From: a virus
Taxonomy: Duplodnaviria > Heunggongvirae > Uroviricota > Caudoviricetes
IMG/VR virus record: IMGVR_UViG_2778261510_000005
Length of the DNA: 64,000 nucleotides
Reading direction: 5' to 3' (one strand)
Shown here in pieces: positions 30,328 to 31,740 of this stretch. Under the pieces are notes generated by a model. It was not told where the DNA came from, searched no databases, and saw only the letters and a program-made list of their open reading frames with translations. Numbering within the stretch: the first letter of the stretch is position 1; each line of letters opens with the position of its first letter. The translations under genes were made by a program, and so were the position numbers.

Positions 30328-31155
30328 TTATTTCACCGGAACAAACGGAACAGCGGCATTACTGGTCATATACTGCGGTAATGTACCGTTCCATTTGTTG
30401 ATCGCTTCCAACTCCATAACACCGGGGTTCTGGCGCAGAGCTTCACCACGTAAACGAATGGCATCAGCTTCGGCCTGGGCTTTTGTGCGAATAGCATCAG
30501 CCTGTCCGGCAGCTTCCGCGCGCAGCATGTTGGCCTCTGCTTCACGTTGTTTGACCTCTTGCTCGCGTTGCAGGGTTTTTTGGTTTGCCGTAACTTTGGC
30601 GTTAATACTGTCAATAACTGTTGGCGGATATTCTGGCTTACCTACATAAGAGAGGCTCATCACCTGAATGCCGATTGGCGTCATTTCTTCCTGAATGTCT
30701 TTAAGGGCTGCATCAAGCAATTCAGATTTGCCACCGTCGATAAATTTGTCGGTGGTCATTTTGCTGGCTAACCGGTTCAGAGCATCTGCAACCTTCTGGC
30801 GTAGATCGGTATCAGTAATATCATCTACACCTTTGCGATAGGTCTGAAATACCGTTGTGACTTTTGCTGGATCAACCTTGTAGGCTACGCCGATGTGGTA
30901 ACCAATGGTTGTTCCGTCGCTCATCTGGAAGCTGAACGGCTCATCGTATGTCTTCATTTGCTTAAAGGTCGGGAAGATATAAACTTCAGTATTCAAGCCT
31001 GTCCAGTAGCGACCAACACCAACTACTTCACCGATACCTTTATCATCCCCCAGCTTATTTACTTTGATCCCTACGTTACCTGGCTCTACCCGATCGCATC
31101 CGGTCAGACATAAAGAACCCAAAATAATCGCTGCACTAATCAACGTTTTTTTCAT
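30328..31155 (-). CDS. SPFH/band-7 (prohibitin/stomatin-like) lipoprotein, 275 aa
   Basis: Signal peptide with lipobox (LCLTGC), SPFH-like core and an Ala/Glu/Gln-rich coiled-coil tail. Confidence 0.75.
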   Translation of the reverse strand: MKKTLISAAIILGSLCLTGCDRVEPGNVGIKVNKLGDDKGIGEVVGVGRYWTGLNTEVYIFPTFKQMKTYDEPFSFQMSDGTTIGYHIGVAYKVDPAKVTTVFQTYRKGVDDITDTDLRQKVADALNRLASKMTTDKFIDGGKSELLDAALKDIQEEMTPIGIQVMSLSYVGKPEYPPTVIDSINAKVTANQKTLQREQEVKQREAEANMLRAEAAGQADAIRTKAQAEADAIRLRGEALRQNPGVMELEAINKWNGTLPQYMTSNAAVPFVPVK

Positions 31156-31372
31156 TAATTAATTTCCTGGTTTTTTCACGAAAAAAGACTACTGCGAAAG
31201 CCGGGTAAATGAGCGCGAAAAGGACTCCCAACAATACAAGTATTGTGCTGTTAGATGAGATCATATTTGGCAAAAGCCAAACATACAGAACCAGTGACAC
31301 AATCAAACAGAGGACGGCATAAATATATAACCGCACCCATAGCGTTCGACATTTGTTCGGATTGTTCTGCAT
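31136..31372 (-). CDS. Small inner-membrane protein (78 aa), likely partner of the SPFH protein
   Basis: Two predicted TM helices (YIYAVLCLIVSLVLYVWLL, ILVLLGVLFALIYPAFAVVFF); overlaps the SPFH gene start by 20 nt. Confidence 0.5.
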   Translation of the reverse strand: MQNNPNKCRTLWVRLYIYAVLCLIVSLVLYVWLLPNMISSNSTILVLLGVLFALIYPAFAVVFFREKTRKLINEKNVD

Positions 31373-31740
31373 CCTCTCACTCCATTATTTAACGAATAAA
31401 AAAGCTGCGGTGCCGGGTGCCTCCCGGTGTCCTTTGGCTGGTTATCCACCGTGGGCGGGGAAACAAGGAGAAATAATGGACAGATATAACCATTTCCCCG
31501 CGTGCGCTTAGCCGCATTCACCGCAACGGAAAGAGCATTCTTGGTGGACCTGTAGATTGGGATATGACCCCGTTACGCCAGTGTTCTCAACGTTGTAGTG
31601 CCGGTTACGGTTCCGGCCAGGCCTCTTCCTCAACGGGGGGTTCTCCATACGGACTACCGTTTATTGGTCGTTCCTGCGGTTTATGTTGTGAAGCCAGATG
31701 CTTATCTTCTGGTTGCTTCTAAGAGCTGCACTTCATCACA

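Follow-up and report, generated by a model that had tools for sequence, protein, structure and literature searches.

In phage P1 (NC_005856), the operator and promoter Oban/Pban are followed by a dicF-like region, trnA (tRNA-Asn), trnT (tRNA-Thr), upl and plp on the opposite strand, tciA, tciB, tciC, trnI, ban and dbn, and the annotations of P1 and P7 place the tRNAs, the cargo between them and ban in one operon under the C1 operator Oban. In a published comparison of 77 P1-like phage-plasmids, tciABC is listed as variable region 7 and is missing, through loss, from nearly half (PMC9603915). SPFH (Band-7) proteins, for their part, are encoded by hundreds of phages and by giant viruses with no demonstrated role for any, and for phage members the role has been called "unclear" or "still not clear", or an HflK/C-like control of lysogeny has been guessed at (PMC13239085, PMC8540360, PMC10269572). 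Here we describe a 64,000-nt stretch of DNA from a virus of the Caudoviricetes, a P1-like phage-plasmid (IMG/VR record IMGVR_UViG_2778261510_000005), hereafter the window, in which a gene for an SPFH lipoprotein and a gene for a small membrane partner occupy the place of the tci genes. We propose, with moderate confidence, that the cassette formed by these two genes, which fills the cargo slot of the C1-repressed tRNA-ban operon, encodes a membrane scaffold serving to condition or protect the inner membrane.

On the minus strand of the window the order is dmt, a control region, tRNA-Asn, tRNA-Thr, a gap of 452 nt, an open reading frame (ORF) of 78 aa (31136-31372), an ORF of 275 aa (30328-31155), tRNA(CAU), ban and dbn. 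The initial annotation, made from the sequence letters, had recognized an SPFH/Band-7 lipoprotein between tRNA-Ile and tRNA-Thr/Asn, with a small partner of two transmembrane (TM) helices overlapping its start. Both observations are borne out, the first by the Pfam match (PF01145, E=9.7e-31), the lipobox and the tRNA calls, and the second by an overlap of 20 nt. The stretch of about 370 nt said to lack a convincing ORF holds indeed none longer than 72 aa, but that length had been counted to 31740, whereas the gap extends to 31824 (31373-31824).

The product of the 275-aa ORF matches Band_7/SPFH with 107.6 bits (cut-off 23.6) over residues 22-208, covering positions 2-176 of the 176 of the profile, and matches phrog_200 ("lipoprotein") with E=2.9e-113. 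Its first 20 codons (31096-31155, minus strand), read directly from the sequence, encode a lipoprotein signal peptide: the N-terminus MKKTLISAAIILGSLCLTGC|DR displays a basic n-region, a hydrophobic core and a lipobox L-T-G-C with Cys20, followed by Asp at +2. Aspartate in this position is a signal for inner-membrane retention (Lol avoidance) in E. coli. The protein thus combines a signal peptide, a lipobox of the form [LVI][ASTVI][GAS]C and Asp+2, as expected of a predicted inner-membrane-retained lipoprotein. All 80 enterobacterial viral copies show the ...GC|D signature, and an alignment of 41 family sequences reveals Cys20 to be invariant, as are W255 and G257 in the C-terminal motif KWNGxLP. 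Among 1.8 billion representative proteins, 2,901 relatives were retrieved at E<=1e-3 and 218 at E<=1e-30, nearly all of which keep a cysteine at the lipobox position.

The lipid anchor also bears on the idea that the protein is a lysogenic-conversion or virulence factor acting on an animal host, for instance as a TLR2 agonist released in vesicles. A possible precedent is PM0222 of Pasteurella multocida, an HflK/C-like SPFH protein encoded by a prophage, for which a role in virulence has been reported (PMC9872710), and copies of the family also reside in Stx-converting prophages. We regard this role as very improbable, given that Asp+2 predicts retention in the inner membrane and hence no surface exposure, that the gene lies in repressed early operons, and that the family extends to lytic phages and to environmental bacteria, among them cyanobacteria, Acidobacteriota and Leptospira.

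The AlphaFold2 monomer model (pLDDT 74.5, C-terminus poorly defined) predicts a signal helix, a beta-rich followed by an alpha/beta domain (SPFH1/SPFH2, residues ~20-175), a helix of 65 residues (178-242), and a short helix with a tail. In Foldseek the full length of this model could be aligned to every cage-forming SPFH protein of solved structure, namely HflK/HflC, prohibitin, erlin, stomatin, flotillin and QmcA-YbbJ, each time with probability 1.0. The modelled architecture is that of an SPFH protein, in which a membrane anchor precedes SPFH1/2, followed by a long coiled-coil helix and, at the C-terminus, an oligomerisation segment. By sequence the closest solved structure is HflK, at only E=6e-4. 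Phage records label the gene "serine protease", "transposase", "transferase" or "lipoprotein"; the first two labels appear unfounded, SPFH/Band-7 being the sole similarity that we found for the protein.

This kinship raises the question of whether the phage protein could mimic HflK/C, its cage capturing or modulating FtsH from the periplasmic side, altering substrate stability and thereby tuning the lysis-lysogeny decision or early development. Such a role, raised as an HflK/C-like effect in several papers, would fit with HflK and HflC being the closest solved relatives by sequence and fold, with the same predicted periplasmic orientation, and with the location of the gene in early operons of temperate phages, beside int/xis in phiP27. 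We consider it unlikely nonetheless. The HflC and HflK equivalog scores fall below their cut-offs, a single SPFH gene stands where a K/C pair would be expected, and a lipid anchor takes the place of an N-terminal TM helix; moreover, obligately lytic phages carry the gene and make no lysogeny decision. The P1 lysogeny switch (C1/Coi/Lxc/Ant) has no known FtsH dependence, which also speaks against this explanation.

The proposed membrane scaffold includes a second component, the 78-aa partner. It consists of two hydrophobic helices joined by a short, presumably periplasmic loop (LLPNMISSNST), with basic residues at both ends, and is predicted to adopt an N-in/C-in topology. Its stop codon sits 20 nt inside the SPFH reading frame, and the overlap contains a run of seven A (31146-31152, minus strand). 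The partner matches phrog_1130 ("membrane protein", moron category; E=1.6e-15), and no known function is recorded for either phrog_1130 or phrog_200. The initial annotation had suggested a search for an NfeD-like domain; Pfam NfeD (PF01957) gave nothing in the partner at E<=1, and a soluble domain is likewise absent. PADLOC returned for the partner only a chance-level match to PDC-M18B (E=0.029). The partner evolves much faster than the SPFH protein, with pN of 0.27-0.52 still below pS of 0.78-0.92.

The pairing of both genes recurs well beyond the window. In 78 of 80 related IMG/VR contigs a two-TM ORF of 62-78 aa ends 1-20 nt inside the SPFH start, and one of the two contigs without it is truncated by the contig end. 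P88, phiP27 and Stx2 phages carry a 62-67-aa two-TM ORF overlapping the SPFH start by 4 nt, and in the N4-like phage Pylas gp28/gp29 a gene noted as "2 TMDs N-in C-in", with the loop LPAMISAKDT, overlaps the lipoprotein gene among early/middle genes. When species-representative bacterial genomes of many phyla were searched with a pattern built from a 7-sequence alignment, a partner or a fusion was found at 41 of 51 loci, which include Enterobacterales, Xenorhabdus, Morganella, Sutterella, Leptospira, Bacteroidota, Acidobacteriota, Binataceae and cyanobacteria. Furthermore, about 20 of the 150 best family representatives are long forms (322-392 aa) in which the hairpin is fused in frame to the SPFH protein in the order TM1-loop-TM2-basic linker-signal-like TM3-SPFH, with a loop motif P-x-[LM]-[IVL]-S-x-x-[STD]. 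Such fusions are classic evidence that two products work together, and their architecture suggests that the ends of the hairpin are cytoplasmic while the SPFH domain lies outside. Among 131 neighbouring ORFs at 14 diverse loci, Pfam revealed no recurrent third gene family, which points to a self-contained module.

Taken together, these data show that the association between SPFH and two-TM genes is not a chance juxtaposition of ORFs, and sequence comparison supports the conclusion that the cassette is an old, self-contained module of two genes. For annotation this means that the 78-aa partner, whose ORF is routinely missed by PGAP and omitted from the RefSeq copies of P1-like plasmids in which the SPFH gene is annotated, belongs to a two-gene unit. 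In P0001, a database protein of 347 aa encoded on a contig of 94 kb, partner and SPFH are joined in frame (...KLINEK|TLISAAII...) through the loss of one A from the A7 run, much as in the natural fusions of distant relatives. Either an error of homopolymer sequencing or a true variant could account for it, and given the possibility of such an error we set it aside as evidence for programmed frameshifting.

Comparison with P1 defines the slot that the cassette occupies. As the initial annotation had stated, the tci genes of P1 lie at the equivalent position, in the trnT-trnI interval of NC_005856, and its notion of swapped cargo is supported by blastn collinearity with P1 except at 30310-31405. 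The window is P1 DNA from 28501 to 30309, after which 1,096 bp on the minus strand with no P1 counterpart (30310-31405; delimited by blastn against P1, RCS47 and MH422554 and by the junction sequences) stand in for the 724 bp of P1 that comprise tciC, tciB and tciA. A blastn search of 30310-31405 against P1 at word size 11 gave no match, hence no sequence similarity to tciA, tciB or tciC, and Pfam detected no TerB domain in the cassette proteins. GC content is 0.41-0.47 in the cassette versus 0.51-0.55 in the flanks. With no identity to tciA-tciC and the SPFH call holding, neither an ancestral P1 gene set nor a wrong domain assignment overturns the original description.

The borders are sharp: the cassette begins 33 nt before the partner ATG and ends 18 nt past the SPFH stop. 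Upstream, P1, P7 and the window share ...CACCGGGAGGCACCCGGCACCGCA, and downstream the homology to P1 restarts at CAGTAATCC, 9 nt upstream of the 5' end of tRNA-Ile. These borders are common to three cargo alleles, namely the tciABC of P1, the terB-type cargo of P7 and the SPFH cassette. The downstream border is marked by tRNA-Ile2 (anticodon CAU; 30225-30300, minus strand), detected by ARAGORN and Rfam and labelled Met by the former, which is the same gene as the tRNA-Ile2 of the P1 record and of PGAP. The upstream border is P1 backbone, the tciA-upl intergenic DNA, at 31406-31576 (minus strand; 96.5% identity by blastn to P1 locus L001 3586-3756). Further upstream, about 254 bp of P1 comprising upl and the 5' part of plp (P1 locus L001 3732-4035) are gone from the window. 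This deletion lies between direct repeats of 24-25 bp, GTAGATTGGGATATGA(A/C)CCCGTTAC, at 31552-31576, and blastn and repeat comparison place its scar at 31552-31722 on the plus strand, where the leftover plp fragment (31564-31722) retains an ORF of 52 aa with a premature stop. Past the deletion the homology to P1 runs on through tRNA-Thr(UGU) (31825-31900) and tRNA-Asn(GUU) (31903-31978), two upstream members of the same operon called on the minus strand by ARAGORN and Rfam, and through dmt. The ORF-free stretch is therefore residual P1 backbone with a upl/plp deletion remnant and not part of the cargo, and the cassette replaces other genes within a defined slot instead of being inserted between the tRNA genes.

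Several other features were observed around the slot. The promoters annotated for upl in P1 lie inside tciA and are thus lost as well from the SPFH allele. A sub-threshold match to the small RNA family STnc100 of Rfam (31406-31525, minus strand; 35 bits against a gathering score of 47) ends in the conserved hairpin by which the upstream slot border is marked, and the stability of this hairpin does not exceed that of shuffled sequences; a similar match is seen at locus L002 3957-4077 (38 bits, gathering score 47). At 31745-31820 (minus strand) a long hairpin, CAACAGGUAAGGG...CCCUUACCGUUG, encloses GGGUUCGAAUCCC, which resembles a tRNA T-arm. Neither ARAGORN nor Rfam calls a tRNA at 31745-31820, and the hairpin, of which P7 keeps the stem with a shorter and different insert, could be what is left of a tRNA, or else a processing element. 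It falls within the plp coding sequence of P1, on the opposite strand, which makes plp doubtful as a real gene. The tRNA arrays of P1-like elements vary: a tRNA-Ser(UGA) lies between tRNA-Thr and the slot in P7 (L088 2323-2409, unannotated there), D6 (L087 2748-2834) and pAVS0578-B (L171 2527-3315), tRNA-Tyr is added in some, tRNA-Arg in pAVS0578-B, and locus L006 3859-3945 belongs to the same set of variants, while the window has Asn, Thr and Ile only. Finally, the tRNA-Ile/ban leader (30034-30223) is ~83% identical to unannotated DNA of several Stx2-converting phages, a similarity that hints at a common ancestry of tRNA regions in P1-like and lambdoid phages.

Such variability invites the explanation that the cassette is functionless DNA hitch-hiking through a recombination hot spot between conserved RNA elements. 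The slot is a known variable region, in which about one third of P1-like plasmids have tciABC and others carry neither allele, and the adjoining upl/plp DNA is decaying. The SPFH gene, in contrast, is under strong purifying selection (dN/dS ~0.04), hundreds of copies retain intact frames, and across phyla the pair stays together. These data on selection clearly disfavour a passive passenger, an account that we find scarcely credible.

The position of the cassette suggests when it would be expressed. The bivalent C1 operator Oban (Op72; 32636-32663, minus strand), located by alignment with the annotated P1 and P7 sequences, is identical to both and overlaps Pban, and the order of genes from there, next to dmt (32654-34918, minus strand), down to ban (28575-29945, minus strand) is collinear with P1. 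The cassette brings only 33 nt of upstream DNA of its own, and no hairpin follows the SPFH stop in the P1-type cassette, whereas the copies of P88 and phiP27 possess their own terminator hairpin. From these features and the operon annotation of P1 and P7 we infer that transcription of the cassette starts at Pban once C1 repression is lost. A candidate intrinsic terminator just upstream of the partner (CACCGGGAGGCACCCGG plus a U-run, 31395-31432) was rejected, its stem being of 5 bp, 8 nt away from the U-run and unremarkable against shuffles (z=-0.9). The counterpart of the dicF-like region (32434-32535) contains a terminator-like hairpin with a U-run (32451-32470, minus strand) upstream of the tRNAs, which any transcript starting at Pban has to traverse before it arrives at the tRNAs, the cassette and ban.

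The sites chosen in other phages are in line with early expression. In the P2-like phage P88 the pair lies within the repressor-controlled early operon, between cox-side genes and a replication gene, and in the lambdoid phage phiP27 it is found in the leftward early region near int/xis, likewise under repressor control. Together with the obligately lytic carriers, these locations point toward a job in lytic development and not in lysogenic conversion. A device for lysis timing or envelope integrity, in which the cage restrains the holin or spanin or stabilises the membrane and so prevents premature lysis, could be envisaged in this context, since the protein is a predicted periplasm-facing inner-membrane scaffold of lytic growth, lytic phages carry the module and SPFH proteins are organisers of membrane microdomains. 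The lysis genes, however, are not adjacent in P1-like elements, P88, phiP27 or Pylas, and early/middle replication genes surround the Pylas copy; a role in lysis is thus improbable.

We therefore return to a scaffold that conditions the inner membrane, and propose for it the following model. The lipoprotein would likely be exported, receive its acyl anchor on Cys20 and stay in the inner membrane by virtue of Asp+2, a retention that would orient its SPFH domain towards the periplasm, like that of HflK/C. On this outer side of the membrane it would probably assemble into an HflK/C-like cage or ring, as its modelled fold suggests, and the hairpin partner likely provides the transmembrane part that a lipid anchor lacks. 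Transcription would likely take place from Pban together with the tRNAs and ban, early after C1 derepression and not in the quiescent prophage. We hypothesize that in infected or induced cells this assembly would condition or protect the inner membrane, most likely by rendering it resistant to periplasmic-side damage or entry, for instance by superinfecting phage DNA or pore-formers. Homologues of the TerB-like genes have been linked to phage inhibition and to resistance against tellurite and colicins. We favour periplasmic-side protection because the cassette replaces TerB-like tci genes, which would keep the slot within the same broad theme.

Several points weigh against this model. It is an assumption that alternative cargo of one slot should have a functional theme in common. 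Oligomeric state, partner binding and localisation are read from predictions, with moderate confidence for the AlphaFold2 monomer, and expression of the cassette from Pban is deduced from its position; a scan for consensus promoters at 29900-32800 found none but also missed the annotated Pban, so that an internal promoter is possible. About one fifth of the distant relatives are without partner, and other upstream membrane proteins stand beside the Bruynoghevirus and phiCbK-like copies. The defence models of PADLOC-DB 2.0 gave zero matches to the SPFH protein, and the literature on phage SPFH lipoproteins offered no study that assigns a function.

In a bolder version of the model, the pair would be a widely mobile phage system, hitherto unrecognised and in P1-like elements functionally interchangeable with the TerB-like tciABC, whose periplasm-facing cage on the inner membrane shields the infected cell from superinfecting phages, pore-forming colicins or membrane-targeting abortive-infection effectors. 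We hold this extension to be rather doubtful at present. If true, it would constitute the first defined role for the many SPFH proteins that viruses encode, and proof of a membrane-shielding or exclusion system would raise the interest of the module.

The arrangement itself is not new and is already common in databases. RCS47, "Punavirus P1" MH422554 (where the gene is labelled "putative SPFH domain protein"), vB_EcoM-813R1 and Ro157c2YLVW have the same organization, with 95.8-99.4% nucleotide identity over cassette and flanks. Among the ~590 PLSDB plasmids that match the flanks, 188 contain the SPFH cassette, 191 the P1-type tciABC and others neither allele. An SPFH copy with at least 80% nucleotide identity is present in 423 of 5,426 complete E. 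coli genomes, with 192 full P1-type cassettes on plasmids of ~95 kb and 266 chromosomal places. By tblastn, 392 phage records encode the SPFH protein, including obligately lytic N4-like, Bruynoghevirus, 4MG-like, phiCbK-like, crAss-like and Lak phages; copies in obligately lytic phages have been covered before (PMC8540360). The cassette is, in summary, a common allele of a known variable region, already sequenced and annotated, and the copy in the window is an ordinary member of a recognised, large and functionally uncharacterised group of phage and bacterial SPFH lipoproteins. What our analysis contributes beyond the database labels is the pairing, and occasional fusion, with a non-NfeD hairpin, the predicted periplasmic placement at the inner membrane and the exact borders of the slot.

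How, then, does this locus relate to the systems that have been named? With HflK/HflC the phage SPFH protein shares, in the Foldseek comparison, the full-length fold (SPFH1/2, long coiled-coil and C-terminal cap region) and the predicted location of the SPFH domain on the periplasmic face of the inner membrane. Identity is only ~18%, however, and HflK and HflC form a heteropair anchored by N-terminal TM helices, whereas the phage encodes a single protein anchored through its lipobox. Membership of either family was rejected: the scores of 24.7 bits for TIGR01932 hflC (cut-off 134.4) and 23.3 bits for TIGR01933 hflK (cut-off 159.4) lie so far under the cut-offs that the protein is to be placed in the SPFH superfamily and not as an HflK/C orthologue. 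The SPFH-NfeD operons (QmcA/YbbK-YbbJ, YqiK-YqiJ, PH1511-PH1510) likewise couple an SPFH gene translationally to a gene for a small membrane protein, and the QmcA-YbbJ complex (8z5g) is a structural match to the SPFH part. Their partner, however, is an NfeD/OB-fold protein where the cassette has only a 78-aa hairpin, and QmcA faces the cytoplasm, unlike the predicted secreted lipoprotein of the phage. Identity with these operons was ruled out, as Pfam detects no NfeD/OB-fold domain in the partner. By functional analogy only, small envelope proteins made by phages and acting at the inner membrane or in the periplasm, such as the exclusion proteins T4 Imm/Sp and P1 Sim, could serve as parallels, a lead rather than a result.

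Paralogous copies of the cassette occur in P88, phiP27 and Stx2 phages. In P88 and phiP27 the mature SPFH protein is ~92% identical and a two-TM partner is likewise located upstream, while the signal peptides differ and the partners are 31-55% identical. RCS47, which has the same cassette, differs from the window in that its upl and plp are intact. The P1 tciABC genes, lastly, share with the cassette an identical slot, operon and borders and are also small accessory genes associated with the membrane or envelope. The tci genes are dispensable for P1. The tci set comprises three genes and the SPFH cassette two, without kinship in sequence or fold. With each allele occupying the slot in about one third of the plasmids, P1-like elements offer a natural and tractable test bed in which both kinds of cargo can be compared within one and the same operon.

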